This document shows, in pieces, positions 1-47,129 of a stretch of 64,000 nucleotides of DNA; position 1 is the first letter of the stretch; every line of letters begins with the position of its first letter. The stretch is from Nemertoderma westbladi (lineage: Eukaryota > Animalia > Xenacoelomorpha). Below the pieces are notes generated by a model, which saw only the letters and a program-made list of their open reading frames with translations, was not told the DNA's origin and searched no databases. A program made the position numbers and the translations under genes. The stretch is taken from NCBI GenBank assembly GCA_032718475.1, contig JAUCBJ010001237.1, positions 1-64,000 on the forward strand, written 5' to 3'.

Positions 1-40
1 TAAACGGAACTGGTTCTAGATAATTATTTTATTAACTAAC

Positions 41-138
41 ATCAAACATCGAGAGTTGTGGAGAATTATTACGACGGACAATCCGTAGTGCATCTTCTAG
101 TAAGGTTAACGGTCTTGGTGGGGGTGACTTGGATACAC
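41..138 (-). CDS. CEP126/KIAA1377-like gene, downstream coding exon (VSKSPPPRPLTLLEDALRIVRRNNSPQLSMFD)
   Basis: Acceptor cttgcag (AG at 140-139) and donor GTTAGT (40-35). Phase matches the exon at 41663-41811 (T+GT=Cys). Peptide resembles the CEP126 segment VSRKPVPPLEEALKQI as recalled. Confidence 0.75.
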
Positions 139-212
139 CTGCAAGTATAGATAGGATGCACCTTAAAGCTCCATGTTCAATAGAAGTGGATTAGATGGAA
201 GCGTCTGAACTG

Positions 213-263
213 GTTAGCGCTACTGATGAGGCCTGATGGCCGAAACGTACGTATAGCGCTGGC
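213..263 (+). ncRNA. Minimal type I hammerhead ribozyme (probable Penelope-like element remnant)
   Basis: Stem I GTTAGCGCTA/TAGCGCTGGC; core CTGATGA (223-229); stem II GGCC-tgat-GGCC; GAAA; palindromic stem III AC-GTAC-GT; GUA cleavage triplet at 251-253. Confidence 0.9.
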
Positions 264-316
264 TCAACCCCCGGTGACGTGCTTTCCCATTGTTACCATT
301 TCTGAATCAAATCCTC

Positions 317-6132: not shown

Positions 6133-7171
6133 TCCCAGATCTCAACAATCACCGCCCCACTCGGTAGCGACACTGCTCCACTGGTTAACTCAGGGTTCTT
6201 CACTCCCATCAATAACCTGTGATATGTACCAAGATTGCAAGATATGTACTCATGTGGTTAGTTTATCTGGTAATCAACCAGTTTTTTTTTGTGTTACGGT
6301 AACTAATTAGCCATATGGTTCCAGGCTTTGTCACTTATCTCCTGGTTAGAAATCTTATCTTTGAAAACATATAAACTCTTTTTTTTAGGCTTAATGATGG
6401 AAACGCTCCCAATTTATTAATTTTTTTTTCTTTTTATTACATAATTATTATAGCTCAAGTTCTATGATTATCAGTTTAATGTAATAACTAAAATTTAAAT
6501 TATATACCCTACCGGTACTTAAGCTAGTAAGTCTAACAGTCTGGGATTTTCATATGTGTACATGATCCATATACACCTACTTTCGTAAATGGTTTTGAAT
6601 TGATCTGAATTGATGGTTTTGAAAATGGTGCATAAAAATACATACTGCACAATACTGCATAATATAAATAAATCACAATTTACCGGTAATTTATTTTACA
6701 TTGTCTTATGTAAATCTGGTGTAAATCAGTAAATTAATGGACGGCAGGATAATACATGTTTAAAGTCATATAATATAATTGACTTGCCTAGGTAACATAA
6801 ATGGTCTAACTCTGTACAGTAGTTTACAATAAATCACGTGTATATAAATACATTGATACATTAAACTTGAAATAAAATTAAATTTACAGTTTGAAATATA
6901 TCAGTTACGTAGCTACAGTGTAAAAAGTAGTATCACATATGTACAGTAAAATTTATCTAACTAGGTACAATAAACTATGAACACCATATAAAATAAATAA
7001 TTATGAAGTTCAATAAAATACAATGTTTATTATGTTAATTAATAATCATAATAAATGTATTCATTGGTACTTGGAGTACATAGATTAGATTATATATTGA
7101 TGCTTGAAGTTAATAATGCTGTGCAGTTAGTACTGTACTGACTACATTTTATCGTTTAAACTATCTTCGCC

Positions 7172-8532
7172 TTGGTTAGTGCCTCGTCATTTTCTCCCAG
7201 ACAAATTAAACAGTCTGTCAATTGTACTATCATTTTAGCCAACCCCTGTCAGTTGCCATCTCTTGTGGATGATGGCTGCGGGTTTTGCTATACCCGTATT
7301 TGCCTCCGCGAGGCCCACTTTCACTGCCCACTATGTGGTTTATCCTTTCATTTTCAATGTGGCTCCCATATTCCAACCTCAGATTTCGAATCTAATCAAA
7401 TCTATTGGTGCTTTCACTGTTTACATGAAACCTTTCCCTTCTCTGGAATTCCTGACAATGATTTAGACATATTTTATGATAATCTGGATAATATTAATAA
7501 CAACATCTCTGTAGACGAGGTAAACAATTACTTTGAAAGTATTAACCCGGACGGTAATATTACATCATACCTAACCACAAATGAGTATTTTAATTTCGAT
7601 AAATTTGATACTTTGTACAAATCCTGTGACCACCCATTGTCTGTGTTTCACTTAAACTGCCGCAGCCTCCCTGCCAATTACTCGGAAATTTCTAACTTTT
7701 TTGAAACTCTTGAGTCGCGATTTGATATTATTACTTTCAGTGAAACTTTTCTGACCGATAATATTGAGCTGGGCCCACTTAGCTTCGCTGGTTATACCTC
7801 TCCTTTCTGTGATTTTCGGGATTCAATGAAACCTCGTGGTGGCACTGCGATTTACGTTCGTAATGAATTGGATGTCACTGAGAGGAGTGACATTAAGATT
7901 ATTGGACCGGAAAATAAGTGGATCCAGGTCAATCATCCACATTCCAATAAACCGCTAATAGTAGGTTGTATTTACCGTTCACAACAAGTTGACACTAGTA
8001 ATTTTATCTCGAACCTCGATTCAACACTGCATACTTTGGCTGACAAAAATTATGATGTTATCGTTACAGGAGATATTAATATTGATCTATATGGGAATAA
8101 TGCTAATACCATTAATTCCCAGGATTATTTAGCTGCTTTGTCCTCCAATGGTTTCACCCAGCTGATAGACAAACCAACCAGAATAACTCCCTTCTCTCGT
8201 ACTCTAATCGATCACATTAGTACAAACATTAAATCTTCCTTGTGTCACCATGGTGTTTTCCTCCATGAAATTGGCACATCTGACCATTTATCTACTTTCA
8301 TTTTGCTATCTGATTATAACACTTATTTTAAACCTGAGAGTTCCAAGACTAGTTACGATTTCTCTCAGTTTAATAAAAATAATTTCATTGACAGCTTAAA
8401 TAATCCTGATTTGTGGACTTATAAGAGTCTGAATGTCCCCTCTACAGACCGCTTCAATTGCTTCTATAAGGATTTCCAAAATATTTGTTCTCATAATCTC
8501 CCGACCAAAATAATAACAAAAAAAGATTTACC
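7172..8532 (+). pseudogene. LINE ORF, 5' half: PHD-like finger and APE endonuclease
   Basis: Cys/His pattern CxxC..CxxC..HxxC..WCxxC; APE motifs HLNCRSL, FSETFL, RGGTAIYV, GDINID, IDHI, SDHL. Confidence 0.92.
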
Positions 8533-9605
8533 AGTAGTAATAGTTTACCCTACTTCTGCGACAGTTTAGTCCTACTTCACACCTTGGGTGTTAAGTAGGT
8601 CATTAATTAATTAATCAATTAATTAATTGGTCGATTAAACAATTAATTAATTGTTTAATCAATCGATTCGTATCAAATAATGTTGCCAAAGGCAATTTAA
8701 TTTGATACAAATCAATCAGATAGGGGGCGCGAGATGAATAAATTGTACTACAACAAATGAAATATACAATACAATATACAATACATTTGTATTATTTTTG
8801 CCATACAATAAAATGATATAATTAAATATAAAGACGCAATCGAGGCCCAAAACATAAATATACCCTTTCACCAAAATAAAGTGGCCCCAGTTTGGTCCCG
8901 AGTCATCCCTCAATAATCTATGGCTGCTCGGGCTCTTATTAACCGTATAGCATGACTAACCCAATCATCAATGCGTGAATGGGGCATGCGATAGAGCTTA
9001 AATTATTCATACCCACAGCTTCGTTATTATATCAATTCATCCAAGAAATTAGAATAAACATCTGGTATGGCATTAGTTTGCATTCTTTCGCATTGTACTT
9101 TATGAAGCAGTCCACGTGCATATTAGCCCTACAACAAAGCCCTACCCAAAACACCACATGTCAAATTAATTCCCAAACCATCTCTTTACTACAGTGGATA
9201 CTGCAGTTTTTTTTGTTTGAAGTAATTTCAGTTGCTCTAGCGTAACATTAATTAACATACCCAGTCTGACGCAGCAACCCATTCATTACACACACTTTTC
9301 TCCGTTGCACTCCCCCGCTTCTCAATTCATCCCATTTCCCTTCGTAACTAATGTTTTACATTTAATTAACCCAATGAAATGTGTTTATTATTCCCTCAAT
9401 CCAATAGCGCGTCTCTCTCTCTCTCTTTTTTATTTCTATTGGTTCCCACAAGCTTCACTTTTATTTTCATTGGTCAGCCTTTCCCTTATAAACCCCCACC
9501 CATCGCTTCGAACTTTACTTACAAAAATATTATTGACAATTTTACTTTTTATTTAAAGTTATAATACATTTATTGTTATACATAATATTATATTTTCTTC
9601 AAGAT
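8533..9605 (+). repeat. Left terminal inverted repeat (1073 bp)
   Basis: Reverse complement of 23348-24418; about 2 substitutions and 2 single-base homopolymer indels seen. Confidence 0.97.
9401..9492 (+). promoter_or_regulatory. Putative Pol II promoter in the TIR (CCAAT boxes + TATA); mirrored in the right TIR at about 23460-23555
   Basis: CCAAT at 9401, ATTGG at 9438 and 9469 (31 bp apart), TATAAA at 9487-9492, pointing inward. Confidence 0.6.
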
Positions 9606-9736
9606 TGTTATACGTAACACATTTATTATTATAAATAATATATTGTTGCAAACATCAACGTGATTTGATTTTCCTTCTTATTATTCCTAATCGAGCAATT
9701 TTCTTTTTCCAATACCACGCACGAATCAATCTGCAG

Positions 9737-9860
9737 GTAAGAACAATAAATTTGTATTTTTATGAATTCGTTTAGTTTTAACATTATTACCTCAAAATAA
9801 ATATCAAACCCGCGAAACCTTCCCAAACTTATTATTATTATTTAGTTTTTTATTTTATAG
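9737..9860 (+). other. Putative 5'-UTR intron of the pPolB gene
   Basis: CAG|GTAAGA donor; T-rich tract ending TTTTATAG five bases before the ATG at 9866. Confidence 0.6.
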
Positions 9861-9865
9861 CAAAC

Positions 9866-12800
9866 ATGCCTATGTCACCAAAATTCGTTGACTGTCCCGT
9901 CTGCAATAAGAACATGCGCAGTGACAATCTCAACAAACATCTCGCATCTCATTTTAAACAATATTCATGCGATTGTTGTGGCACCTGGTCCTCCGATAAG
10001 AAAACCATGGTTAGCCATCTAGCGCTATGTACGCAAGGTGGGACTGGGTTCAGATTTATCAACGAAGAAAACACTTGCAAGTGTGGCGAATCATTCACTT
10101 TATCAGCCTTTAAAGAACACGATTGCTATACGCGACTCTTCTCTCGGAAACGCAAACAATCTCAAACGCCCTTGTCACCACCACCACCACCTCCACCACC
10201 AAACATTCAATCTCCAGGGGTTGGCCCTTCTACTTCAAGACAACAGACTGGAGGTTCGACCAACAACCCATTTTTACCATCCGTGAATAGCTCATCCCAC
10301 AACCGCTTATTTACATATACAAACACGTTACTTACACCACAATTAGATGTAGAGTTAACACTTAGAGAAAATGAAAGTTATATTTGGGATAGAGTGAGTC
10401 AACATTTTAATAATGAATTTAATTTTATAAAAGTTTGGTTAACTATTTCTATCTTAATGGAAAGGGAGACATCTGAGGATACTCAATTAGAAACCTTCTG
10501 TTTCAAATCAAACGCTTCAAATAATCAAATAACTTCTAATTCAGATTTTGAAAACTGGTTTTCGCAAACTATCGAACGAATAGATGAATTAATAGCAGTC
10601 TTTGTTTGCATGGGCAGTGGTTGGAATATTGTTTCAATTAAAGAAATCAATTTACAAATTTCTACCTTCAACCGCAACCCATATTTCAAAGGACACGGTG
10701 GTGGTTATATTCCTAAAATTTTAGCAAAGAAGAAGTGCATTATTAACTTAGATTGTCCCATCGGGGAATGTTTTAAGTATGCAGTAGTCGCGGCCGCTTG
10801 TTATAAAAAAATTGAAAGAAAGAAACAAAACATTAGTCGATTGTCAACATATACTCCATACATGACCATGTTTGATTTCAGTACGATGAGTTTCCCAGTA
10901 GATAGAGTAGTAGGCATCCCACGTTTTTTAGAAACCAACCCTTTGTACTGCATTAATTTATTATTTTGGAGTACTGATAACACATTGAGCATTCTATCAC
11001 AACCAGATTCAGAACATTGCTTCCAAAAAACTGTTTTAAATTTAATGTTTATAGAAGGTAATCAAAACAATCCAGGACATTACTGCGCAATTGTCAACTT
11101 AAATAGACTTATTAAAAAACAAGGACAAAAGAACAAATCAATTTGCGAGCGTTGTCTGAGAGCTTTTTATACTATCAACTCATTGCAAACTCACCGGGAA
11201 CTATGTTACTCGAGCAAACGACAATTGGAACAAATGCCTACACCAGATAAATTAAAAATTAAATTCAATCGATTGGATAAAACATTATCCCCTCCCTTTT
11301 GCATATATGCCGATATTGAAAGCGTTTTAGAACCTACATCAAACCCTAAATTAGTTCAAAAGCACATTGCTAGCGCCGCCGCATTTTATACAGTACCAAA
11401 TCGCGAGCTAATAAATCCCCCGCAAACATCATTACAAATGTTTAGAGACACTGGAACAAACCATGTTATAGACGATTTTCTCACTGCCCTCGAATCACAC
11501 TGTAGGGAATTGTACGAATGGACTATTTCTGGTACAAACACCAATGTTCCTAAACATTTGACTCGAGCACAGCAACAAAATTTTGATAATGCTACAAACT
11601 GTTACACTTGTAACTGTTCTCTAACCCCCGATTCACACGGACTGAATCTAGCAGAAAATCTCAATACTAAAGTTTGTGACCACAACCATCTAACGGGAGC
11701 CTATCGTGGGGCGGCATGTGTTAGTTGTAACCGCAAACTTTCTCTTAAACGCAATAAATTTTATGTAGTGCTACACAACCTGAGGCATTACGATTCCCAT
11801 TTAATATTAAAAGAAGGTCTGAAAAACAGTTCTAGAACTCATTGGAAGATAAACGTAATTCCAAAGAACACTGAGACTTATATCAGTATAGAAATATCAT
11901 TTCCCATAGACAAAACCATGCAGACAGCAAATGCAAAAGAAAGTATTGTCATCAATCTTCTAGACTCTCTACAGTTCATGACAGCTAGTCTAGATAAGCT
12001 CAGTAGTTATCTTACTGCAAACAATTCTGATCTAACAAAAGCTATCCCACACACTTTGAAACAAATGAAAAATCTTTATCCCAATATTAGCGATTCCACT
12101 ATTAAAAACAAAGGTATATTTCCTTATAGCTATATTCAATCCTTATCAAACTTATACGAAACTCAATTACCACCAATCGAGAGTTTCTATAACGATTTAC
12201 AGCTTGAAGACTGTAGCGAGCATAACTATCAGCGTGCCCAAACTAGTTGGGTTGAGCTTCAATGTCAAAATATATTTGATTATATGATGGGGTACTTGGC
12301 TCTAGATGTCACACTTCTCGCGGATACTTTCCAACAGTTTAGGGAACTATGTTTCTCCAATTATGGGTTAGATCCTCTGCATTATTATACTTCACCGGGG
12401 TTAACGTACGATGCGGCATTGAAATTTACAAACAGTGAAATTGAACTACTATCTGATGGAACTATTTACGCAGATTTTGAAAATAATATTCGTGGAGGGC
12501 TTGTATTTCTGAATACACACTTAGAGGAAGCTAATATACCTGGCAAACCAGAATACAACCCCTGTAAACCAGAAAAATACCTAATTCCTCTCGATGCAAA
12601 TAACCTTTATGGTTCTGCTCTCTCTCAGAAGCTCCCCTGCAGTAATATGAAAATCGTCGATACACCAATAGATCTGGCTACAGTGGATGCCACTGGGTCA
12701 GTGGGATATTACTGCATCGTTGACCTGGAATACCCCCGAGAGATCCACGACGAAACTGCCGACCTACCACTAGGAGCGGAAAAAATGTCCATTCCCAAGA

Positions 12801-13927
12801 GCTTTCTTAGTACATACATGCAAGACCTCTGGCAACATTATAATCTCAATGATCAAGGGACCTATAAGCAATATAATGAGAAATATAGTAAACTGATTCT
12901 TCATCAATTCAAAAAAACTAATTATGGTATTCATATAAAATTACTCCAATTATACTTAAAATTAGGACTTCAAATAACACAGGTGCATAAAGTATACTCA
13001 TTCACTCAAAAATACATATTCAGAGACTATATCTCGTTTAATACATCCAAACGACAATCCGCCAAAAATGCTTTCGAAGTTTTATTTTATAAACTACTCA
13101 ACAACTCACTCTATGGGAAAAGTCTTCAGAAGGTACGAGACCGGCTATCATTCCGACTCTGCACATCCCCAGAACAGTGCGATCTACTATTATCAAAACC
13201 AAATCATGAGCGCTTCGTCTCATTCTCCCCCTATCTCAGTGGTCACACTTTTACTAAAGAAGTAGCAGTACTCAATCAAGCTGTATTTATTGGAGCAACC
13301 ATCTTAGATCTTTCAAAGCTAGAGATGTATGATTACTATTACTGTAAACTGAAACCTCTCGAAGAAAAGCTGAGATGTGAAATTCGAGCCTTAGCCGGAG
13401 ACACGGACAGTTTCTTTCTTTCGGTTACCGGTGTTGAGCACAAAATATTCCTAGAAGCCATGTTTAACTCCGGCTTTCTAGACACTTCAAATTACGACCC
13501 CTCACACCCACTCTTTACAAATCAAAACAAGGCTTCCTTAGGTTTTTTGAAAGATGAAAGTAGAGGTCTATTATACAAATCATTTGTATTTTTAAAACCG
13601 AAAATGTATTCATTCGAGGCATACGATGCGCAACCAAAGCGGACTTGCAAAGGAATTTCAAAAAATATTGTAGCCAAGCAATTAACACATAAACACTATT
13701 TAGACTGTTTTATCAACGAATCAACAGATTACACAAACAACACAATATTTACTTCTAGGGAGCATCAAATGTTTACGGGGAGAATAAAAAAAAAAACATT
13801 AAGTCTCTGGGATACAAAATCATTCTGGATGACGAAATATTACAGTAGACCATATGGCCACTATATTACGGGGTTAACTAAACCAACAAAAAAAACTGTA
13901 ATACCACCTTATTTAGTTGCAGAATAA
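9866..13927 (+). CDS. Protein-primed family B DNA polymerase with N-terminal zinc fingers, vOTU-like region and an endonuclease VII-like insertion
   Basis: Exonuclease motifs YADIES and HNLRHYDSH; polymerase motifs LDANNLYG, KLLNNSLYGK, DTDS, KMY; CDHNHLTGAYRGAACVSCN insertion. Confidence 0.97.
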   Translation: MPMSPKFVDCPVCNKNMRSDNLNKHLASHFKQYSCDCCGTWSSDKKTMVSHLALCTQGGTGFRFINEENTCKCGESFTLSAFKEHDCYTRLFSRKRKQSQTPLSPPPPPPPPNIQSPGVGPSTSRQQTGGSTNNPFLPSVNSSSHNRLFTYTNTLLTPQLDVELTLRENESYIWDRVSQHFNNEFNFIKVWLTISILMERETSEDTQLETFCFKSNASNNQITSNSDFENWFSQTIERIDELIAVFVCMGSGWNIVSIKEINLQISTFNRNPYFKGHGGGYIPKILAKKKCIINLDCPIGECFKYAVVAAACYKKIERKKQNISRLSTYTPYMTMFDFSTMSFPVDRVVGIPRFLETNPLYCINLLFWSTDNTLSILSQPDSEHCFQKTVLNLMFIEGNQNNPGHYCAIVNLNRLIKKQGQKNKSICERCLRAFYTINSLQTHRELCYSSKRQLEQMPTPDKLKIKFNRLDKTLSPPFCIYADIESVLEPTSNPKLVQKHIASAAAFYTVPNRELINPPQTSLQMFRDTGTNHVIDDFLTALESHCRELYEWTISGTNTNVPKHLTRAQQQNFDNATNCYTCNCSLTPDSHGLNLAENLNTKVCDHNHLTGAYRGAACVSCNRKLSLKRNKFYVVLHNLRHYDSHLILKEGLKNSSRTHWKINVIPKNTETYISIEISFPIDKTMQTANAKESIVINLLDSLQFMTASLDKLSSYLTANNSDLTKAIPHTLKQMKNLYPNISDSTIKNKGIFPYSYIQSLSNLYETQLPPIESFYNDLQLEDCSEHNYQRAQTSWVELQCQNIFDYMMGYLALDVTLLADTFQQFRELCFSNYGLDPLHYYTSPGLTYDAALKFTNSEIELLSDGTIYADFENNIRGGLVFLNTHLEEANIPGKPEYNPCKPEKYLIPLDANNLYGSALSQKLPCSNMKIVDTPIDLATVDATGSVGYYCIVDLEYPREIHDETADLPLGAEKMSIPKSFLSTYMQDLWQHYNLNDQGTYKQYNEKYSKLILHQFKKTNYGIHIKLLQLYLKLGLQITQVHKVYSFTQKYIFRDYISFNTSKRQSAKNAFEVLFYKLLNNSLYGKSLQKVRDRLSFRLCTSPEQCDLLLSKPNHERFVSFSPYLSGHTFTKEVAVLNQAVFIGATILDLSKLEMYDYYYCKLKPLEEKLRCEIRALAGDTDSFFLSVTGVEHKIFLEAMFNSGFLDTSNYDPSHPLFTNQNKASLGFLKDESRGLLYKSFVFLKPKMYSFEAYDAQPKRTCKGISKNIVAKQLTHKHYLDCFINESTDYTNNTIFTSREHQMFTGRIKKKTLSLWDTKSFWMTKYYSRPYGHYITGLTKPTKKTVIPPYLVAE

Positions 13928-13928
13928 A

Positions 13929-14453
13929 ATGCCATACAAAGCAAGCAGCGGATCAATACCAATTCAAATAATCAATCGCCAATATACAGCTCAAACTGAA
14001 TTTCCAATTGATATAATCAAAGTTTCTCAACAACTAAAAGGTGAGATGCGGCAAAAACCAAAAATGTTTGTGTATAAGACTGGATCTGCGACAATTATGC
14101 TATTCCCAACTGGTTCAATAACAATAGTGGGTCCATGTAAAAATATTTGTAATGATTTACTTTATCTGAAACAATGTACCAACATACTAATTAAGAAAAT
14201 TAAATTAAATACAGTGACCAGACTAATTAAGTTACCATCTCTTAATTTTAAATCATTAAGTAAAAAGTGTGGACATCATTTTGTAAACAATGTAAAGGTA
14301 TATATTGATTTTACGCCGGAGCTCTTTTGTGGAATTCGATTGTATATTGGGCGATGTTATTTCAGTGTCTTTCACTCGATGAAAGTTATAAGTATGTGTC
14401 CTGTTGGTGATTTTGAAGAAGCTCTCATTATATTATTTAGTTTATTGAATTAA
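13929..14453 (+). CDS. Divergent TATA-binding-protein-like protein (174 aa)
   Basis: Two-repeat pattern. ATIMLFPTGSITIVG resembles TBP TALIFSSGKMVCTG; FTPELFCGIRL…FSVFHSMKVI resembles YEPELFPGLIY…LIFVSGKVV. ATG lies 1 nt after the pPolB stop. Confidence 0.75.
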   Translation: MPYKASSGSIPIQIINRQYTAQTEFPIDIIKVSQQLKGEMRQKPKMFVYKTGSATIMLFPTGSITIVGPCKNICNDLLYLKQCTNILIKKIKLNTVTRLIKLPSLNFKSLSKKCGHHFVNNVKVYIDFTPELFCGIRLYIGRCYFSVFHSMKVISMCPVGDFEEALIILFSLLN

Positions 14454-14461
14454 TAAGTAAA

Positions 14462-14650
14462 ATTATCTCTCAATATACTACATGTCATTATACTGTATGT
14501 GCGGTTTTATATATTTATGTGATTATATTATCTCTCAATATACTACATGTCATTATACTGTATGTGCGGTTTTATATATTTATGTGATTATATTATCTCT
14601 CAATATACTACATGTCATTATACTGTATGTGCGGTTTTATATATTTATGT
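14462..14650. repeat. Three copies of a 65-bp direct repeat inside the Polinton
   Basis: ATTATCTCTCAATATACTACATG… starts at 14462, 14527 and 14592. Confidence 0.95.
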
Positions 14651-14957
14651 AAAAAATATATTGAATTATATTATTAATAACATCTTACCTTGAGAACAAG
14701 TAATGGGGACCCACCTCTCCTCACCAAACCCCTCCCGAAAAAGTCCGTAAGGCCAAGGTTTACTGCGCTTGTTCTCCATTGAGTGATTAGTTGTTAAACT
14801 GGTGAATTCATTATATAAATTTAAATATTTACTAAAGCCGCTAGATGGCATGCATTTGTGACACGAACATTAATTTCATATTATACTGTATAAACGTTAA
14901 AATTCAATTATTATTTTAATAAATATAATAATAATTGTGTTATAAAAGGAAAACACG

Positions 14958-15584
14958 ATGGATATAGTAGATATGCGGTTTCGTTTTGGAAGTACAATAT
15001 TAATAGCCGGTCCTAGTGGTAGTGGAAAAACTTCTTTCTTGGAGAAAATGTTATTAAATAGGAAATTGATCTTTAACGAAACTCCAAACAGTATTACTTG
15101 GTTTTATGGACAGACGAAACCAATAATTAAAGGGGTTAATATTACCGCTTTAAATGAAATTCCAGAACACTTTAATGAAAATGTGAAAAACCATTCTATC
15201 ATTATAATCGACGATTTGATGACAGAACTACAAAATTCCAAACAAGCGACTACGCTATTTACTAAAGTAGCTCGACATACAAATTCATTGGTAATTTTTC
15301 TCACTCAAAACCTTTATCAAAAAGGAGGAGAATCTAGGACCCGATCCATTAATTCCACTTATTTCTTATTGTTCAAAAATCCGAGGGATCAGACACAGAT
15401 AAGAACTTTAGCCTATCAGATGAAACCAAATACACCCAAATTCTTAATCGCGGCATTTCAAGACGCAACAAAGGTTCCCTTTAACCCACTTCTTATTGAT
15501 TTTCATCAATTAACGAATGATAGCCTACGCATACGTGGTTATTTATTTACAAATGAACATTGTGTTTATCAACCCGTGTCGTAA
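14958..15584 (+). CDS. A32-like genome packaging ATPase
   Basis: Walker A GPSGSGKT, Walker B IIIIDD, ARH, LTQN and FKNPRD motifs. Confidence 0.95.
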   Translation: MDIVDMRFRFGSTILIAGPSGSGKTSFLEKMLLNRKLIFNETPNSITWFYGQTKPIIKGVNITALNEIPEHFNENVKNHSIIIIDDLMTELQNSKQATTLFTKVARHTNSLVIFLTQNLYQKGGESRTRSINSTYFLLFKNPRDQTQIRTLAYQMKPNTPKFLIAAFQDATKVPFNPLLIDFHQLTNDSLRIRGYLFTNEHCVYQPVS

Positions 15585-15597
15585 TATACGTAGAAGA

Positions 15598-15735
15598 ATG
15601 CTTCTATTAGCAATTGTCTGTTATTTAGTTATATTATACTTATTTGTGGTTTATCATCGACAAAGGTTTCTTAAATTTCTTAATAGTATAGAACAAGTAT
15701 GGAACTTAATATACGAAAGTATAGGAAAGAACTAG
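15598..15735 (+). CDS. Small putative membrane protein (45 aa)
   Basis: Hydrophobic N-terminus MLLLAIVCYLVILYLFVV; fills the gap between the ATPase and the next gene. Confidence 0.45.
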   Translation: MLLLAIVCYLVILYLFVVYHRQRFLKFLNSIEQVWNLIYESIGKN

Positions 15736-16040
15736 AATTTTTGAAAAATAGCAACGCATTAGCGCGAGGGGCATTTATTCGAAAAAAGGCTAGTAGCGAA
15801 TTAATACGACTTCTCGTTAATATTACACTGAATACGCTCTATGGGAATATAAATATTGATGGAAAGATTGTTAAAAAATTGAAGCCTTATAAGAAATATA
15901 TGAGACGATTGAAATCGAAAAATTCAGTTTCACTTCAAAGACGTTCTCTCTCTCAGGCTGGGGGGTTCCTTCCACTTATTTTGCCACTGTTGATAGGCGC
16001 CACAAACATTGCCACAACTGTTGCCACAGCGTTAACATAG
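15699..16040 (+). CDS. Basic virion core-like protein with protease site and hydrophobic tail
   Basis: K/R-rich body followed by QAGG|FLPLILPLL, the adenovirus pX-like motif common in Polintons. Confidence 0.8.
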   Translation: MELNIRKYRKELEFLKNSNALARGAFIRKKASSELIRLLVNITLNTLYGNINIDGKIVKKLKPYKKYMRRLKSKNSVSLQRRSLSQAGGFLPLILPLLIGATNIATTVATALT

Positions 16041-16042
16041 CC

Positions 16043-16225
16043 ATGTCATTCAAGAAACTATATTTAATAACCCCCGAACAACATGCTAGGTTGCAACCAA
16101 CACAGTTGAAAACTAAACCTTTAATTAAAGAAACAAAGAAAAAAGGTCAAAATAAACGGACAATAAACGATAGAAGAAAAGTGTTGAAACTGTTTGATTA
16201 TACGCGCCGCAAATCGCGAAAATAA
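16043..16225 (+). CDS. Small basic protein
   Basis: Tightly packed with neighbours, GCCATG start context, lysine-rich. Confidence 0.5.
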   Translation: MSFKKLYLITPEQHARLQPTQLKTKPLIKETKKKGQNKRTINDRRKVLKLFDYTRRKSRK

Positions 16226-16294
16226 TGTCTTGGTTAAAAAAACTTTCAATAACTTGCAATTTTCGTTGTCTGTGCAATTCTAGCAGTGTTACCT

Positions 16295-17365
16295 ATGGCT
16301 ATGATCAACAAGATGGTAGAAAAACGCTTAGCCAAAGCTTACTACAATCCTTCAAGTGTTGCAGGGTTTTCCACTGTAGGAAAGCTAGCAAAAGAGACGG
16401 GAGTCAATCCAAAACTCGTGAAAAGATGGCTTCAAAGTCAGCCGACCTTCACATTGCATGCCCCAGCGAGGCGTCTGTTTCCCACAAGCCGAATGTATTT
16501 TTATGGAATTAGTGACACCATTCAGGCAGATTTAATAGATATGCAAAAATATCGTGCAACAAACTCAGGTTATGGATATATTCTAACCGCAATCAACTGT
16601 TTTAGTAAGAAGGGGTGGGCATTACCATTGAAACGGAAGACTGGTATTGAAATTAAACATGCACTACAGTCTATTTTTACTGAAGAAGTACCACGTAATT
16701 TATGTACAGATCAAGGGTTGGAATTCGACAATAAAGTTGTACTCAATTACTTGAAAATGAAAAAAGTTAAATATTATACAACACGATCGCAGTTCAAAGC
16801 AGCCATTTGCGAAAGGTATAATAGAACGATAAAGACAAAGATGTATAAAATTTTTAGTAGAAGAGGTAACCATAAGTGGCTTGCTATTCTACCAAAAATT
16901 GTATACTCTTATAATAATTCTATACATAGATCTATTGGAATGCCCCCAATTCAAGTCAATAAGTCGAATGAAGATAACGTGAGAAGAAACCTCTATGGAA
17001 ATTTAGCTAAAATCATTGTAACAAAACCCAAATTGAGAATAGGTGACAATGTGCGACTTAATATAGCTAAAACGGCGTTTGAAAAAGGTTATACAAAAAA
17101 TTGGACCGGTGAGGTGTTTACTGTAAAACGTATAAGACTAGATCGTTTTCCTCAGCCTATGTATCATATAATAGATTCAGTTGATAGAGAAATAGAAGGA
17201 ACATTTTACCCTCACGAATTGCAAAAGGTTACACAAACAACTGATATTCACCCAATCGAGTCCATTTTGAAGTCTCGAATAAAAAACGGTCGGAAGGAAT
17301 TCCTTGTAAAATTTAAAAACTATAAACGGAACTCTTGGTTGAGCGAATCCCAACTACGTAAATAA
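16295..17365 (+). CDS. Retroviral-like DDE integrase with C-terminal chromodomain
   Basis: QADLIDM, TDQGLEF, ERYNRTIK; chromo-like IESILKSR…EFLVKFKNY…SW. Confidence 0.96.
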   Translation: MAMINKMVEKRLAKAYYNPSSVAGFSTVGKLAKETGVNPKLVKRWLQSQPTFTLHAPARRLFPTSRMYFYGISDTIQADLIDMQKYRATNSGYGYILTAINCFSKKGWALPLKRKTGIEIKHALQSIFTEEVPRNLCTDQGLEFDNKVVLNYLKMKKVKYYTTRSQFKAAICERYNRTIKTKMYKIFSRRGNHKWLAILPKIVYSYNNSIHRSIGMPPIQVNKSNEDNVRRNLYGNLAKIIVTKPKLRIGDNVRLNIAKTAFEKGYTKNWTGEVFTVKRIRLDRFPQPMYHIIDSVDREIEGTFYPHELQKVTQTTDIHPIESILKSRIKNGRKEFLVKFKNYKRNSWLSESQLRK

Positions 17366-17375
17366 ATCAACAAAA

Positions 17376-18203
17376 ATGAATAACTATATAACTTTATTCT
17401 CAAATGGACCTACAAACAAATTTCCTGATAACACCCTTTCGAAATTTACGGTTGATCTACCCTATACAATCAATCTCAGTGGTGATGTAGAAGTGGGACT
17501 ATCTGAAATTCAATACTGTTCCTCATTCTATAATATACGTCAACAATCTCTGTTTACAATTTATTATGGAGATAGGTCATCGCAAGTTGTTATATTTGAA
17601 CCAGGACTATATACGAGTGTAGAAGCCATTATTAATAAAATCAATCAACAAATTGATCACCCGAAGTGGCCCCAAATTCAATATTTCAAATACTCAAATA
17701 AAATCGAGCTCGCTACTTCGCAACACTTTTCTTTTGAAATTACTGGAGATTTGATTACAATACTCGGTTTTGAGGAGTTTACGCAGGATTATGATCCGAG
17801 GGATGTACCTTATCTAGCTAATTGGTATGATTATTGGAGTGTAAATGTTAGTGAATTTGGTTCTTTAACATTCAAACAGCAACCGGGACAGCGTGCTCAA
17901 TTTAGGGGGATTTGTCCCTTTTCTTGCGATTTAGTCTTGGGGCGACATAATTTGTTTATCTATAGTGACATTACTTCTCATGTGACTGTAGGAAATACGA
18001 CGGCACCGTTATTACGCACGGTACCTCTCGAACTTGAGCATAATAAAGTTATAACACGCGAATTTAAAAAAATTTATTACAGACCAGTTGCTAGAACAGT
18101 TGTTAATCAGATAAATATTGAATTACGCAACGAAAAAGGAGAACTAATATTATTTAATGAAGGTGCAACAATAATTACCCTACACTTAAAAAGTAAGTCA
18201 TAA
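17376..18203 (+). CDS. Minor capsid (penton) protein 1
   Basis: YITLFSN…FPDNTLSKFTV, EVGLSEI, FIYSDI…VGNTTAPLLR, IELRNEKGE motifs typical of Polinton minor capsid proteins. Confidence 0.88.
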   Translation: MNNYITLFSNGPTNKFPDNTLSKFTVDLPYTINLSGDVEVGLSEIQYCSSFYNIRQQSLFTIYYGDRSSQVVIFEPGLYTSVEAIINKINQQIDHPKWPQIQYFKYSNKIELATSQHFSFEITGDLITILGFEEFTQDYDPRDVPYLANWYDYWSVNVSEFGSLTFKQQPGQRAQFRGICPFSCDLVLGRHNLFIYSDITSHVTVGNTTAPLLRTVPLELEHNKVITREFKKIYYRPVARTVVNQINIELRNEKGELILFNEGATIITLHLKSKS

Positions 18204-18997
18204 TGGAGAAAATATTATATTTACCCTCGAATTCTTCACCTAAACGATTTCCATTAAATCAACCTTCCAACTTTAATGTGGAACTATCTGAACCATTGCG
18301 TTTTAGTGGAAAGTGGATGGTGGGTTTGTCAGAATTTGTTTACCTCTCCTCGGTTCATAATTTAGAAGATACATTCATTTATATTCGGAGTTTACAAGGA
18401 ACTAAAAGAAAATATATAATACCATCTGGTTGCTATACTAATGTGGAGGCGTTGCTTACACAGCTAAATATAGATGGTCTCAATTCCCATTTAGAAATAA
18501 GACAAAATGAGCTTTATGACAACATTAGTATTCAGTTTATCGACGAAAGTAAAGTTGTTCGTTTTTATGGAAATAAGTTGATTGAGTTACTTGGATTGCG
18601 GGGATTAGAAAATGAGTGTTATGTTAATAAAAATAAATTTCTTGTTAGCCTAAAAAATGATTATCTACAAATAACGCGAAGGGGGGAAATAGAGGGTGAT
18701 TCTGATATATTACATATTCAAAAAGCAGCAAATGTTTTTATGGGAAACATTAGTATATTTTCAAATATTTGCGGAAATGAGATTGTTGGAAATCAACTGA
18801 AACCCCTCTTAAGATCTATTCCTTATCAAGGAGATTATGGTAAGCTTGTTCATCATGAATTCACAAATATTAATTATAAATCCATTGATATGCAAAATAT
18901 AGAAACAATAAATATACAGTTAAAAAATGATCGAGATGAATTCATAAAGTTTAATAATGGTACTGTAATTGCGACATTAATTTTGAAACGCCAATAA
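18203..18997 (+). CDS. Minor capsid (penton) protein 2, a diverged paralog
   Basis: Same motif series: LPSNSS…FPLN, VGLSEF, VGNQLKPLLR, IQLKNDRDE. TAATG stop/start overlap with penton 1. Confidence 0.85.
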   Translation: MEKILYLPSNSSPKRFPLNQPSNFNVELSEPLRFSGKWMVGLSEFVYLSSVHNLEDTFIYIRSLQGTKRKYIIPSGCYTNVEALLTQLNIDGLNSHLEIRQNELYDNISIQFIDESKVVRFYGNKLIELLGLRGLENECYVNKNKFLVSLKNDYLQITRRGEIEGDSDILHIQKAANVFMGNISIFSNICGNEIVGNQLKPLLRSIPYQGDYGKLVHHEFTNINYKSIDMQNIETINIQLKNDRDEFIKFNNGTVIATLILKRQ

Positions 18998-19028
18998 ACG
19001 ATAAATAAGGAAATATATTTAGGAAGCA

Positions 19029-19637
19029 ATGAGTTATAAAGATTATTATCAAAGGAGTTTGTAGAAAACATTACAGAGAACACTTTATAAGGTTATTCGC
19101 GGTGGTGTTAAAAATAAACAGACTGGGAGGATGAAGGGTCTCAGCTCAGAAATGGTTACACCTCCTTCCATAATGAGGCAACGATTACAATTATTAGAAT
19201 GGAAACGAAAGGCGGGGGGAGGACTACCTTATTTTGAGGGGGGATATAGACATCGACACATGAACAGTCGCACAGTTTTTGTGAGACACGGTCAACGAGG
19301 TAAAGGTATCCTTGGAAATATTATTCGGATTGCAACTAAAGTAGTGCCCAAAGTTATTAAGCCCGTCGCGCGAGCAGCAATTCGCAAAAGTGCTCCTTTT
19401 GTAAAAAAGACAGGGAGAAAAATTGTCAAACGAGTAATTCGTCGGGGAATTCCACAACTTAAAAAGATTGGAAAGAAATTAGCAGAACAGGCTCTCGCCA
19501 GCTCAAAACCTTCCACTAAACGAGTAGCTCATAAAATTATTGAAGAAGTTTTAAACGCAGCTGATGGGAGGTCAATAAACGAAACTCGCAAAAAACGCAA
19601 ATCAAAAAAGCATCACTGTCCAGATATTTTTGGTTAA
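19029..19637 (+). CDS. Basic core protein (protein VII-like) with an in-frame TAG at codon 12; the tracked ORF 19131-19637 is the downstream part
   Basis: MSYKDYYQR is in frame with AGGGLPYFEG…QRGKGILG and an R/K-rich body; TAG at 19062-19064. Confidence 0.7.
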
Positions 19638-19663
19638 ACTAAATAATAACACTGGAAGAAACC

Positions 19664-20902
19664 ATGGAAGAACTAAATTTATTTAATCACAGTGATGTTC
19701 AGAGTGTAATTGAAGAAAGTTTTGAGCAGGAAATATACCCTGTGACTACATTGGGAGAGGGCACATCAGTTATAGATTTCATGATTGAAAAGTCAGAAGA
19801 TTACTATACGATAGGAAGTGAAACAACACTACAATTAGTATATCGTGTTGTAACAACAATACGACCTGACAATGGCGCAGTTTATCAAACACCACTAAGC
19901 CTCTCTACTCTATTTTCAAACATTAGTGTTTTGATTAATGAGCGGGAGGTAGAGTCTAATACTGCCAACTATCCCTATAAAGCTTTCCTAAAAGCGGTCT
20001 TACTTAATGATCAGAGTACAAAAGAAACGATTTTAGCTGCCGAAGGGTTTGCAGAACAAGAAGCGTTTGGTGTTCCTGTAGACTTTGCTGCAGCTGCTCA
20101 TTTGGAAAGTAGACCATATTATGTTCAGGGGTCTCTATTTGTTGACCTTTTTGAACAGGTTAAATTTATCCCACCCAAAACTAGTATAAGAATTAGATTA
20201 ACAAGAGCAACAAATGCATTTAACTTAGTATGTATTGCAGCCGTACAAGAGCCTCGAATCAATATATCTAATGCTTTGCTGAAAATTAAACGAGTAAAAT
20301 TGGATCCATATACACGTCAACAACATATAGAACAATTAAAAATAGGAGATTATATTTATCCAATTATGCAGAATGAGGTAACAACCTTTACTATAGCAAA
20401 TGGTCAACAATCTCATGTGAGGGAAAATTTGTTTACAAGCAAGAATGTACCTCGCTTTGTTAATATTGTCATGGTTCGAAATGATTCTTACAATGGAAAC
20501 TTAAGATCTAATTCACTATTGTTTGATCACTTTAATGTGAATTACTTACAACTTACGTTGGATGGTAAGGTAATTGGAGGTGTGACATATAAACCAAATT
20601 TTGCTAATGGACAATATATTAATGAGTATTGCGCCAGTCAAAAAAACCTTCTATCTATAACCAGAGGTACAAACAACGGCATTACTCCCACTAGATTTCG
20701 TGATTTATATCCAATATTTTCTTGGAATTTATCCCCCACGGGATTTATTGATGAAGACGAACGAAACCCACATCAAATAGGCAATGCTAGATTAGAGATT
20801 GCTTTCTCAGCTCCTTTACAAAATACAATTAACGTAATTATGTGGGTGGGATATGATAGAACTGTGAATATCAGCAATGTTGGATCCGTAACTATTTTCT
20901 AG
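19664..20902 (+). CDS. Double jelly-roll major capsid protein
   Basis: ELNLF…Q…IE…YP…IDF N-terminus, YPYKAF, F.HFNV, GNARLEIAF; 412 aa, directly before the protease. Confidence 0.9.
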   Translation: MEELNLFNHSDVQSVIEESFEQEIYPVTTLGEGTSVIDFMIEKSEDYYTIGSETTLQLVYRVVTTIRPDNGAVYQTPLSLSTLFSNISVLINEREVESNTANYPYKAFLKAVLLNDQSTKETILAAEGFAEQEAFGVPVDFAAAAHLESRPYYVQGSLFVDLFEQVKFIPPKTSIRIRLTRATNAFNLVCIAAVQEPRINISNALLKIKRVKLDPYTRQQHIEQLKIGDYIYPIMQNEVTTFTIANGQQSHVRENLFTSKNVPRFVNIVMVRNDSYNGNLRSNSLLFDHFNVNYLQLTLDGKVIGGVTYKPNFANGQYINEYCASQKNLLSITRGTNNGITPTRFRDLYPIFSWNLSPTGFIDEDERNPHQIGNARLEIAFSAPLQNTINVIMWVGYDRTVNISNVGSVTIF

Positions 20903-20912
20903 AAAGAAAAAC

Positions 20913-21341
20913 ATGTTGAACTCATATGATTTGAATAATTTCCCAATAGGAGAACATTATCGTGGTTCTTTCGCCATTGATCAATTACCAGCGAAGGATG
21001 GCTCTAAAATGAGCTTCATTTCAAATACTCAAGCCGCTCATTTACCTGGTATGCATTGGGTGGCTGTTTTTATGAATGAAAATATAGGTGAATACTTTGA
21101 TTCATTTGGAGTGTTCCCCCCGGCTCGTATAGAAGACTGGTTGTTGCGTAATACAATAAAATGGTCAAGGACACGAAAAGTGGTTCAACACCCTCTAAGG
21201 ACGAGTTGTGGGGGATACTGTTTATATTACTTATCTGAACGATCAAAAACTGACACGCCTCTACGCAAGTTTGGAACAGACTTGAAACAAAATGAAAAGA
21301 TACTTGCATGTTGGTTGCGGAACAAAGCCATAATGAATTGA
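20913..21341 (+). CDS. Adenain-like cysteine maturation protease
   Basis: Catalytic motifs HWVAV, YFDS, Q…CGGYC. Confidence 0.95.
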   Translation: MLNSYDLNNFPIGEHYRGSFAIDQLPAKDGSKMSFISNTQAAHLPGMHWVAVFMNENIGEYFDSFGVFPPARIEDWLLRNTIKWSRTRKVVQHPLRTSCGGYCLYYLSERSKTDTPLRKFGTDLKQNEKILACWLRNKAIMN

Positions 21342-21636
21342 TATTATTAATTGTGTTACAATGTGTTATATCTTATGTGTTACAATGTGTTATATCTTAA
21401 ATGTTACTCTGCTATATGTATATGTGTTATGTTATAAATATAATTTCAATGTTGCTATATTAAAAATAAGAAAATAGTCGACTATATTTCATTTTTCTTT
21501 TTCAACTTTGGATAAATAATATAAGGGTTAAACAAAGAACATCAAAACAGTTAAACAGCTACATTTAACATTTAGACAGTAAACAGTAACAGTAAACATT
21601 TACATGACCAGTTACAATAGACAAGTAACATAAAGT

Positions 21637-23349
21637 TTAGTTTATATCCACAGCATCTAGCTTTATCTTTTTCTGTTCTAATGGAGGATAGTGAGCTAAT
21701 TTTCGTTTTACAATTTCCATCGAATATCTTTTAGAGATGTTGGGGGAATCATTAGGGTGAAATAGATTGAGGTGGATCTGCTTGGGGAGGAAAACTGCGT
21801 CTTTTAGTGTGCGTTTGAGAAAGTTGATGCAACACTCAACAGCATAGTTTGAAGGTAGGGTTAATTTGTTTGTTGTCTTCAGGTTGACAATAATTGTTTC
21901 TGATGGTGTATGTTGAATGTGTATAAGGGGGGTGAGGTAGTAATGGGAGGAAGTGGATTGTTGAATGGGATGAAAGTTGGAGAAATCACTCGCTTTTATA
22001 TTTAAACCATCGGTAAACTGAAACGTGGTTGATTTCAAATCTTTTTTGATGACGGGCCATATGCCAACATAAGCTTCGCCTTTGAATGAATAAATGAAAG
22101 CCGCTACTGATTCGTATAAATTAAGACACTGGTGATTAGGTAGTTGTAGTTGCTTTGGTTCATAATCACTATTGTTGGCCAATGACTTTAGTTCAGAGAG
22201 TGCTTCTCGGGCGCGATCTGTATTGTCAATAGAGAACATGTAGTCATAGCGTCTGTCAGAAATTTCGAGGGTTTCGCAGTTGTAAGCGGTATAAATTTTT
22301 ATTCGATCTGAAATTAATTCTTCGTGGTTGACTTCATCGTAGCATTCGTATCCTTCGACCGCAGAATCGAACCATGAAATTTTAAGAAGTTCATTTCTCG
22401 TGAGTAAAAGTGCATCTCTTGTGGAAACAATAACTTTGTTTGAATCAACCTCAACGCCGCTCGCGAATGCAATGTTTCTTTTATTATTAATATTTGTGAT
22501 ATAACCAAAAGTAGAACTATCGAAAGAAACATAGTTCTCTGGCTCTAAGACAATGTGCGAGATTGGATTGATGTAAGGACGACAAATGTTTATATAATGT
22601 TGTAGTAAAGCAGCCGCAGTGTCTGAAATGGTTAACCAACCCCCATCTACTGTATCTTCTAGTTGTATTAAATCAATAGGTTTTAGTGGGGATGTTTTCG
22701 AATAACGAACAACTTTAAAATTAAAACCAAAATAATGTGCTTTGCTGTTGTTGTAGAAACAGGTTATTTCATTCAATTGTTCAATAAAAGTTAGTACATC
22801 ATATCCAAACAGTTTGAAGAAACGAGATTCATCTTTGAGGGGATGAATCGAGGCGTTCCAAATAATTAAAAGAATTGAGTTTGAAATATTATGAAAATCA
22901 AACAGACACTCATCAACAAAAAAGGAAGCTTTGAGTGTTGACAAACCAAGGAGCTTGTTTGCAGATTCTTGTGTTACATTGCTGTGGATATATTCAACAA
23001 CCGGTTGAGGTATTACAAATGTTTCTAACGAGGTTGTCAGATTGAACGTTATATTCGATTCTGATTTGTGCAGTTTGAAACCATGGTTTGCGGAATGAAA
23101 TTTGTCATTATTTAGAGTTTGATATTGTCCATCCTTCAACTCAAAGCAGGATCGTAGAATGAAATGTGCATAATTTGCTGGAATGAGTTGGGGTTGGTTA
23201 GATGAAGTGGTAACCGTCATTGGAAAGCGTTTGTTCGAAGGATCAAAATATAAACCGAAAGAGTTGTCTGAGAGAGATATTTGATTTTCGTTGGAAACAA
23301 TTTTTACTTGAGGGAAGTTGAACTTTTGAAGAAGTTGAGCTTGAGCCAT
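21637..23349 (-). CDS. 570-aa accessory protein with a PC4/Sub1-like segment and basic C-terminus
   Basis: Long intact ORF whose ATG straddles the right TIR boundary. AFIYSFKGEAYVGIW…GLNIKASDF resembles the PC4 motif. ORF is solid; domain call is tentative. Confidence 0.7.
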   Translation of the reverse strand: MAQAQLLQKFNFPQVKIVSNENQISLSDNSFGLYFDPSNKRFPMTVTTSSNQPQLIPANYAHFILRSCFELKDGQYQTLNNDKFHSANHGFKLHKSESNITFNLTTSLETFVIPQPVVEYIHSNVTQESANKLLGLSTLKASFFVDECLFDFHNISNSILLIIWNASIHPLKDESRFFKLFGYDVLTFIEQLNEITCFYNNSKAHYFGFNFKVVRYSKTSPLKPIDLIQLEDTVDGGWLTISDTAAALLQHYINICRPYINPISHIVLEPENYVSFDSSTFGYITNINNKRNIAFASGVEVDSNKVIVSTRDALLLTRNELLKISWFDSAVEGYECYDEVNHEELISDRIKIYTAYNCETLEISDRRYDYMFSIDNTDRAREALSELKSLANNSDYEPKQLQLPNHQCLNLYESVAAFIYSFKGEAYVGIWPVIKKDLKSTTFQFTDGLNIKASDFSNFHPIQQSTSSHYYLTPLIHIQHTPSETIIVNLKTTNKLTLPSNYAVECCINFLKRTLKDAVFLPKQIHLNLFHPNDSPNISKRYSMEIVKRKLAHYPPLEQKKIKLDAVDIN

Positions 23350-24418
23350 CTTGAAGAAAATATAATATTATGAATAACAATAAATGTATTATAACTTTAA
23401 ATAAAAAGTAAAATTGTCAATAATATTTTTGTAAGTAAAGTTCGAAGCGATGGGTGGGGGTTTATAAGGGAAAGGCTGACCAATGAAAATAAAAGTGAAG
23501 CTTGTGGGAACCAATAGAAATAAAAAGAGAGAGAGAGAGACGCGCTATTGGATTGAGGGAATAATAAACACATTTCATTGGGTTAATTAAATGTAAAACA
23601 TTAGTTACGAAGGGAAATGGGATGAATTGAGAAGCGGGGGAGTGCAACGGAGAAAAGTGTGTGTAATGAATGGGTTGCTGCGTCAGACTGGGTATGTTAA
23701 TTAATGTTACGCTAGAGCAACTGAAATTACTTCAAACAAAAAAACTGCAGTATCCACTGTAGTAAAGAGATGGTTTGGGAATTAATTTGACATGTGGTGT
23801 TTTGGGTAGGGCTTTGTTGTAGGGCTAATATGCACGTGGACTGCTTCATAAAGTACAATGCGAAAGAATGCAAACTAATGCCATACCAGATGTTTATTCT
23901 AATTTCTTGGATGAATTGATATAATAACGAAGCTGTGGGTATGAATAATTTAAGCTCTATCGCATGCCCCATTCACGCATTGATGATTGGGTTAGTCATG
24001 CTATACGGTTAATAAGAGCCCGAGCAGCCATAGATTATTGAGGGATGACTCGGGACCAAACTGGGGCCACTTTATTTTGGTGAAAGGGTATATTTATGTT
24101 TTGGGCCTCGATTGCGTCTTTATATTTAATTCTATCATTTTATTGTATGGCAAAAATAATACAAATGTATTGTATATTGTATTGTATATTTCATTTGTTG
24201 TAGTACAATTTATTCATCTCGCGCCCCCTATCTGATTGATTTGTATCAAATTAAATTGCCTTTGGCAACATTATTTGATACGAATCGATTGATTAAACAA
24301 TTAATTAATTGTTTAATCGACCAATTAATTAATTGATTAATTAATTAATGACCTACTTAACACCCAAGGTGTGAAGTAGGACTAAACTGTCGCAGAAGTA
24401 GGGTAAACTATTACTACT
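23348..24418 (-). repeat. Right terminal inverted repeat (1071 bp)
   Basis: Reverse complement of 8533-9605. Confidence 0.97.
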
Positions 24419-24424
24419 TTTACC

Positions 24425-41693: not shown

Positions 41694-41811
41694 ATGACTC
41701 CTTTGAAACCTCCTGGTTGCATCCAACTGAAACCGACGTCTTTCCTCCAGCACACTTTCCCTTCTCTTCTCCTCCCGTTCCTGTTCTTGGCGGCGTTTTG
41801 TTTCCAAAGCC
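41663..41811 (-). CDS. CEP126/KIAA1377-like coding exon (ALETKRRQEQEREEKRRESVLEERRRFQLDATRRFQRSHLSIGQRDARE)
   Basis: Acceptor tgtttcag, donor GTAAGT (41662-41657); phases fit both neighbouring exons. Resembles recalled CEP126 AFEEKRKEQEEKE…EVTEKFQRAHVPLSQR. Confidence 0.8.
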
Positions 41812-46899: not shown

Positions 46900-47129
46900 A
46901 AATGTGTATATATTGCAGAGATGTTATTCACCACAAAATTGATTATAAAAAATGTGGCTTTTGGTATATACAATACATCTAAAGAAATATTACATACAAA
47001 ATTAAATATTTTAGTTTCAAAAAATAATCGCAAACGACATTTTATATTTACCTGTGTGGAGTTTGGTAGATAAAAAAACCTATTTTCATTAAAAAATTTC
47101 AAAATGTTCCAAACGACATTTTTTCTTAC

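Follow-up and report, generated by a model that had tools for sequence, protein, structure and literature searches.

The window analysed here, 64,000 nt of contig JAUCBJ010001237.1 from Nemertoderma westbladi, holds a Maverick/Polinton element in which a 174-aa ORF directly follows the pPolB gene. [quoted passage not shown] The locus raises two questions: whether the product is a TBP at all, and which DNA such a protein would serve.

The element and its gene order

The structural hallmark of Mavericks/Polintons was present in full, namely long TIRs (~1,073 nt, about 1.07 kb, with a complementarity of 99-100%), AG...CT ends and a 6-bp target duplication, as was the gene set of pPolB, retroviral integrase, packaging ATPase and adenain-like protease (Table 1). 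On the plus strand, pPolB and the 174-aa ORF are followed by the ATPase, the X-like protein, the integrase, two putative minor capsid genes, the core-like ORF, the putative major capsid gene and the protease; the 570-aa ORF is the only listed element gene on the minus strand. pPolB is 32% identical to the polymerases of relatives of the element, and a Pfam search with it returned no polymerase match. The candidates for the double and single jelly-roll capsid proteins were picked through size, order and homology to relatives; the putative major capsid ORF is 27-28% identical to the gene of the relatives and had no Pfam match, and the 275-aa and 264-aa ORFs match the same genes in relatives and likewise had no Pfam family match. 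The ORF at 19131-19637 is one that we take to resemble core proteins.

The 570-aa ORF begins at the inner boundary of the right TIR and has a basic C-terminus. A Pfam search with it gave no match, and the best hit of a PDB search was nonsignificant (E 0.81). It is probably an early gene that uses the TIR promoter.

LINE-like fragments and arrays of a 36-37-nt satellite lie on either side of the element, a setting suggestive of an animal genome; the sequence around the insertion is LINE-like, and beyond it comes one array of this satellite on each side. Long satellite arrays lie at 1-6300, 27100-42000, 47100-51000 and 58700-59600 of the window; their repeat units are 36-37 nt long, based on 7 nt, or 19 nt long. 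An intronless ORF of 280 aa at 62582-63424 on the minus strand has, by eye, the look of what we take to be an OTU-family deubiquitinase. Read contigs were compared over 12500-14880 only; across this interval, three sequencing runs had summed contig depths of mostly ~700 to >10,000, which fits a repeated family, although depth does not equal copy number. The 3' region of the TBP-like gene that holds the 65-nt tandem repeats varies among element copies.

Table 1. Coordinates of the Maverick/Polinton and of its genes, signals and motif sites (positions in the window)
Feature	Position	Strand	Basis or remark
Target-site duplication TTTACC, 6 bp	8527-8532 and 24419-24424
Complete Maverick/Polinton, 15.9 kb	8533-24418		AGTAGT termini
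Left TIR	8533-9605	+	mirror 23348-24418
TATAAACC in TIR, candidate early promoter of the pPolB/TBP leader	9487-9494	+	presumed function
Splice-donor-like GTAAGA after CAG	9737-9742	+	joint deduced from one loose contig end, run X4
Pyrimidine tract and AG, 5 nt before pPolB ATG	9841-9860	+	predicted first acceptor
pPolB ORF, 1353 aa	9866-13927	+	named by sequence and position
Acceptor-like tract ending in CAG, in last pPolB codons	13907-13922	+	6 nt before TBP-like ATG
TBP-fold protein, 174 aa, pI 9.6 (P0001)	13929-14453	+
Three 65-nt tandem repeats, putative 3' UTR of TBP-like gene	14441-14650	+
Putative 3' end	14676-14699	+	AATAAC at 14676; A run behind 14699
TATAAACG	14889-14896	+	68 nt before ATPase ATG; site matching relatives
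Packaging ATPase	14958-15584	+	Pox_A32 above cut-off
Protein-X-like basic protein	15699-16040	+	weak Adeno_PX, E 0.036
Two ATAAACG	16152-16169	+	73 and 62 nt before ATG 16225
Retroviral-type integrase with chromodomain	16295-17365	+	Pfam, integrase E 5e-6
TATAAACG	17321-17328	+	54 nt before 275-aa ORF
Two ORFs, 275 and 264 aa, putative minor capsid	17376-18997	+	position
ATAAACG	18994-19000	+	35 nt before ATG 19029; 137 nt before ATG 19131
Basic core-protein-like ORF, 168 aa	19131-19637	+
ATAAACG	19575-19581	+	89 nt before putative major capsid ATG
Putative major capsid protein, 412 aa	19664-20902	+	size and position
Adenain-like protease	20913-21341	+	weak Peptidase_C5
570-aa ORF behind right-TIR promoter	21637-23349	-

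The 174-aa ORF encodes a two-repeat TBP-fold protein

As the preliminary description had it, the ORF is intact and lies right behind pPolB, its start 1 nt past the pPolB stop, and all six of the TBP-like repeat peptides quoted there were found in the translation, hereafter P0001. The Pfam TBP family (PF00352) was matched by P0001 at E 0.0015, with a score of 18.8 bits that stays under the gathering cut-off of 22.9 bits; because of this, routine annotation would miss P0001, and the family may be undercounted. No match was obtained by phmmer against PDB sequences or by a word-indexed protein search, and a single-sequence structure model of P0001 reached a pLDDT of 46. Among 1.84 billion representatives the sole match was P0002 (29% identity, E 2e-4), a clear two-repeat TBP (Pfam E 1.5e-17) encoded on a 15.7-kb contig, and two further search rounds led to 16 relatives, every one of them above the Pfam TBP cut-off.

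With a 17-row alignment, on which the model leans, AlphaFold gave a pLDDT of 91 and the expected saddle, its two repeats spanning the whole chain. TBPs came out on top in Foldseek, where all 38 listed rows of PDB matches through rank 44 were TBPs at a TM of about 0.7; VIA-align yielded Z 13.2-15.3 for TBP versus 8.7 for the next fold. Since the alignment weighs on the model, profiles that left P0001 out were built as well; these gave P0001 46.6 and 38.9 bits, while 2000 shuffles scored at most 13.3 bits and the other pieces of the window (1270 scanned) at most 11.8, so that the likeness exceeds chance. Together these data confirm that the ORF encodes a two-repeat TBP-fold protein. Among the listed differences between copies of the element, five within the ORF are synonymous and two are not (p 0.006-0.03), and none is an indel; those listed in pPolB stand at 26 synonymous to 4 not.

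A family of TBPs borne by Mavericks

A metagenome search returned 44 loci with a TBP relative: 15 also match other proteins of this Maverick, in five the TBP is cellular or archaeal-like, and the other 24, most of them short, have neither feature; viral-contig scans and one metagenome scan for relatives found none. Of the 11 loci that have an ATPase gene as well, 10 carry the TBP gene upstream of it. Conserved adjacency of the TBP gene and pPolB, the synteny that the preliminary description had proposed to look for, was abandoned, as it occurs in none of the three related loci with both genes.

A tree was built from 44 rows, 16 of 60 having been dropped as short or >90% identical. The cellular and archaeal-like rows form, with P0015 and P0017, a branch (99/96) outside of which P0001 falls; P0001, whose branch (2.68) is longer than any other in the tree, stands with the Maverick-type proteins, a placement that is unsure. 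The scores with P0001-free profiles (38.9-46.6 bits) and the separation from cellular TBP put P0001 with the Maverick-type mini-TBPs, a TBP family borne by Mavericks in which it is a long-branch member. Recent capture of a host TBP was rejected on the basis of the tree and of the 18% identity of P0001 to the cellular TBP in the set.

Loci L040-L043 carry compact archaeal-like TBP genes (~170 aa) on contigs without a match to this element's proteins, and these contigs possibly derive from an archaeal virus or plasmid. Accessory genes occur at several TBP-bearing related loci (L004:222-719, L006:6273-7040, L010:1918-3330 and L011:1003-1419), and include those for a ubiquitin-conjugating enzyme, a dynamin-like GTPase, a leucine-rich-repeat protein and a phospholipase-A2-like domain.

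The DNA-binding face is altered and the TFIIB side partly retained

Residues are numbered as in yeast TBP by way of the cellular TBP of locus L037, whose offset to the yeast numbering is our assumption. P0001 retains the equivalents of N69, F116, G119, G125, E188, L189, F190, F207, S209 and K211. The preliminary description had noted phenylalanines at DNA-contacting positions, which holds for F59, F133 and F148, three of the four intercalating residues; the first is missing, so that the canonical four are incomplete, and throughout the family a gap or Pro stands at the F99 position. Neither the canonical Asn/Thr pairs nor P191 are intact: N69 is kept, N159 is replaced by Thr, T124 by Val, T215 by Met and P191 by Cys. 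Among 52 relatives, V71 is changed to Asn in 37, V122 to Arg in 49, V161 to Thr in 52 and L205 to Asn in 51; P0001 has Gln, Thr, Thr and Ser, respectively, at these positions. Family-wide, hydrophobic DNA contacts have become new conserved polar residues and have not merely drifted, and this change of the DNA face suggests a specific target.

In the stirrup on the TFIIB side, P0001 keeps E188, L189 and F190 and has Thr for E186, with an Asp two residues earlier; within the family, E188 and F190 of this Glu-Leu-Phe are each found in 52 of 52. P0001 departs from near-invariant positions of the family at E186 (Thr), G210 (Met), G216 (lost) and the V122 position (Thr for Arg); E186, G210 and G216 are kept in 51-52 of the 52 relatives.

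ATAAACG stands in front of late genes

The TATA box is usually 25-30 nt from the start site. A TATAAAA at 14941, which the preliminary description had offered as the target, is present, but it is probably the wrong box because it lies 17 nt before the ATPase ATG (14958) and the element contains 14 copies of this word; it was rejected on distance and on frequency in so AT-rich an element. In relatives, ATAAAC[AG] is found 31-47 nt before the ATPase ATG at 11 of 11 loci (8 distinct). The motif also precedes major capsid (4/4), minor-capsid-like (4/4) and integrase genes (5/7), with 1/4 for the protease, 0/2 for pPolB, 3/35 for TBP genes and a background of 0.11; these counts come from TBP-bearing loci only and are circular, as the motif itself had been derived from these loci.

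As the motif was taken from relatives, the window provides an independent test. Here the motif falls within 15-100 nt of 5 of 9 late starts (background 0.079, p 3e-4), and the remaining four, the protease included, have none within 100 nt. ATAAACG occurs seven times on the plus strand of the element and never on the minus strand, six of the seven in front of late starts; it ranks first of 4664 7-mers in a 140-nt span picked after the distances were seen, with p 2.5e-5, which is not significant after correction for 4664. The earlier idea of a viral TBP that serves the capsid cluster thus keeps a conserved motif before late genes and loses the TATAAAA site that it had named.

Four of the six late-block sites read AATAAACG and therefore hold a poly(A) signal, and one overlies a stop codon. 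Of the 26 AATAAA/TATAAA words that the late block contains, 6 have CG right behind them, the share of CG among dinucleotides there being 2.8%; of 26 motif sites in relatives, 17 are preceded by T and 2 by A. In a plant protoplast reporter described in PMC10005294, TATAAACG retained 27% of the activity of TATAAATA, and so host TBP would read TATAAACG weakly, not negligibly.

Directly behind the two adjacent motif copies, a short ORF (16225-16512) overlaps the start of the integrase in another frame (offset mod 3 = 1). Five of seven relatives (L003:2475, L004, L012, L019 and L031) have an integrase-overlapping ORF of 54-66 aa, which starts Met-Gly with a Cys-Cys pair, a possible lipid anchor; that of the window begins with Met-Ser, its Cys residues lying in a comparable position. 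This ORF may represent an overprinted gene that is conserved and in addition limits translation of the integrase. ATG 19029, 35 nt behind a motif copy, shares its frame with the core-like ORF of 168 aa; the core-like gene may be broken in this copy, because a stop at 19062 separates the two.

A leader apparently shared with pPolB

The box in the TIR, TATAAACC, has a TATAAAC core in common with the late motif, which leaves little difference between early and late boxes; the mirror copy of the TIR box, at 23466, precedes the 570-aa ORF by 117 nt. The interval 9480-9737 is free of ATG, and so is the leader that would extend from the TIR box at 9487 to the donor. Among the loose ends listed, a splice-like joint and an A-tail were each seen in one contig of run X4. 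The joint (one contig, one run) connects the donor CAG/GTAAGA at 9737 to the CAG at 13922, the letters of the contig before 13918 matching 9636-9657 and 9726-9731 by eye; the tail is a 20-nt A run behind 14699, untemplated in the window. The two sides of the joint share 5 letters, for which reason a DNA deletion could mimic it, and the contigs are blind to strand. Run X4, which is not on record as RNA, looks like RNA; its depth is low and uneven, and highest over the TBP ORF.

Given the joint between leader and TBP gene and the A-tail in X4, the TBP gene is probably expressed early, as an alternative splice partner of pPolB; the simplest reading is a single early leader that is spliced either to pPolB or to the TBP gene. 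A pyrimidine-rich stretch of ~68 nt (9658-9725), with GT near its start and no matching AG in this copy, is absent from the X4 contig, and represents either an indel or a mini-intron that another copy has.

Proposed mechanism and alternative explanations

We propose, with a probability of slightly under 0.6, that an early-made viral TBP binds ATAAACG and brings host TFIIB and RNA polymerase II to the late genes. The early message would start at the TIR box, read by host TBP, and one spliced leader would serve both pPolB and the TBP gene. The TBP protein would then bind ATAAACG before the packaging and capsid genes; its retained Glu-Leu-Phe stirrup would recruit TFIIB, host RNA polymerase II would be brought to these genes, and the outcome would be an early-to-late switch. 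On the side of this mechanism, the fold, the family, the changed DNA face and the motif before late starts, here and in relatives, are established. Bolder, and in our estimate somewhat short of an even chance, is the picture of a 16-kb endogenous animal virus that would manage its whole early-to-late programme by means of one protein, in which a TIR leader would be spliced to a polymerase or to a re-specified TBP, and this TBP alone would join TFIIB and RNA polymerase II at a private ATAAACG.

The near-invariance of the TFIIB-side Glu-Leu-Phe (E188 and F190 as above) beside a changed DNA face could also be that of a decoy or repressor, which would tie up host TFIIB, NC2 or Mot1 or sit on TATA boxes, leaving the motif to host TBP or to the machinery of a helper virus. 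TBP and TFIIB are a textbook pair whose association needs DNA, and virophages share the promoters of their helper viruses. The C(-25) variant box of PDB 1qn3 is presumably TATAAACG. A host-type TBP was crystallised on that variant box, according to the entry. We nevertheless consider a decoy unlikely, as the DNA face went to new conserved polar residues, suggestive of a specific target, and the motif of the relatives keeps a TATA-like distance from the ATPase ATG. Rather unlikely, too, is a passenger gene, decaying or redundant in this lineage, with the motif a weak host TATA box or poly(A) signal; the lost family-invariant glycines and acidic residue, the longest branch and the AATAAA inside four of six late-block sites speak for this, whereas the ORF is intact, its listed copy changes are mostly synonymous, and the joint and A-tail of one run bracket exactly the TBP ORF. 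The excess of CG behind AATAAA/TATAAA and the preference for T before the motif in relatives also argue against it.

A third role, that of an origin-binding partner which bends or opens the AT-rich terminal repeat for the co-expressed pPolB, would suit the position of the gene directly after pPolB, apparently under the same leader, and the TIR, which has both the TATAAAC core and, near 8593-8668, a palindromic stretch rich in AT. The link to pPolB recurs in none of three loci, however, the Glu-Leu-Phe on the TFIIB side is retained, and the motif is concentrated before late genes; we hold a function in replication to be very improbable. Activation of late genes through ATAAACG is the reading that we prefer.

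Relation to known TBPs and significance

With cellular TBPs and TBP-related factors (PF00352; yeast 1YTB, human 1CDW), P0001 shares the two-repeat saddle (TM about 0.7, Z 15.3). It differs from cellular TBP in being 13-18% identical and below the Pfam cut-off, in having no N-terminal tail, and in the absence of the first Phe, the second Asn, both Thr and P191; several hydrophobic DNA contacts are now polar. Structure matches in BFVD were TBP-like proteins of Nucleocytoviricota and mirusviruses (TM 0.5-0.63). Nucleocytoviricota generally encode their own RNA polymerase. The same was reported for mirusviruses, in the portion of PMC10132985 consulted; the Maverick has the virus-encoded TBP fold in common with both groups and differs in that no RNA polymerase subunit was recognised among its ORFs.

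The viral TBPs (vTBPs) of herpesviruses (KSHV ORF24, EBV BcRF1), which act at TATT late promoters, provide a parallel: the fold is viral and the DNA face polar there as here, and the pairing with an altered TATA-like box before late genes, known for the herpesvirus proteins, is what we infer for the Maverick TBP. ORF24, as far as described in PMC12529657, shows the trend to a polar DNA face, is without TFIIB-binding acidic residues, and is a multi-domain member of a six-member viral complex that keeps four Phe; the Maverick TBP, in contrast, is a bare 174-aa core that keeps E188. The element does not reproduce the herpesvirus vPIC system of a multi-domain vTBP and five viral activators, and Pfam searches of the element and of 35 ORFs of related loci found none of the vPIC partners. 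Under the proposed mechanism, convergence with herpesvirus late transcription would be likely.

Among relatives of Polintons, a MELD virus with an adintovirus-like PolB, a mid-size PolB virus, has a TBP-labelled gene in the legend to Fig. 5 of Starrett et al. 2021 (PMC8502044). In what that paper offers, the gene is known by its label alone, and 'promoter' and 'splic' occur nowhere in the main text. On account of this label, the gene is not wholly unreported; the novelty seen in the preliminary description stands to the extent that prior annotation was one figure-legend label and not frequent in the literature searched. TATA and TBP had no occurrence in the main texts of PMC11131425, PMC10748475, PMC11296320 and 10.64898/2026.10.13.758929, nor in the three supplements searched. 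That label was the only TBP of a Polinton relative found in the literature searched; subscription papers, figures, Repbase entries and bioRxiv supplements may contain prior annotation.

Viral TBP mimics with late boxes of their own are known from herpesviruses and large DNA viruses; to these the present locus adds an extreme member, scoring below the Pfam cut-off, a sharp ATAAACG motif and a spliced leader apparently shared with pPolB. The Maverick TBP and its motif bear on how Mavericks activate their capsid genes and on whether they need a helper virus. If the proposed mechanism is true, P0001 would be a natural altered-specificity TBP, useful for studies of TATA recognition. Under the bolder picture it would form, with its promoter, an orthogonal pair and the smallest known viral pre-initiation system, and would be evidence that such Mavericks express their capsids without a helper virus.
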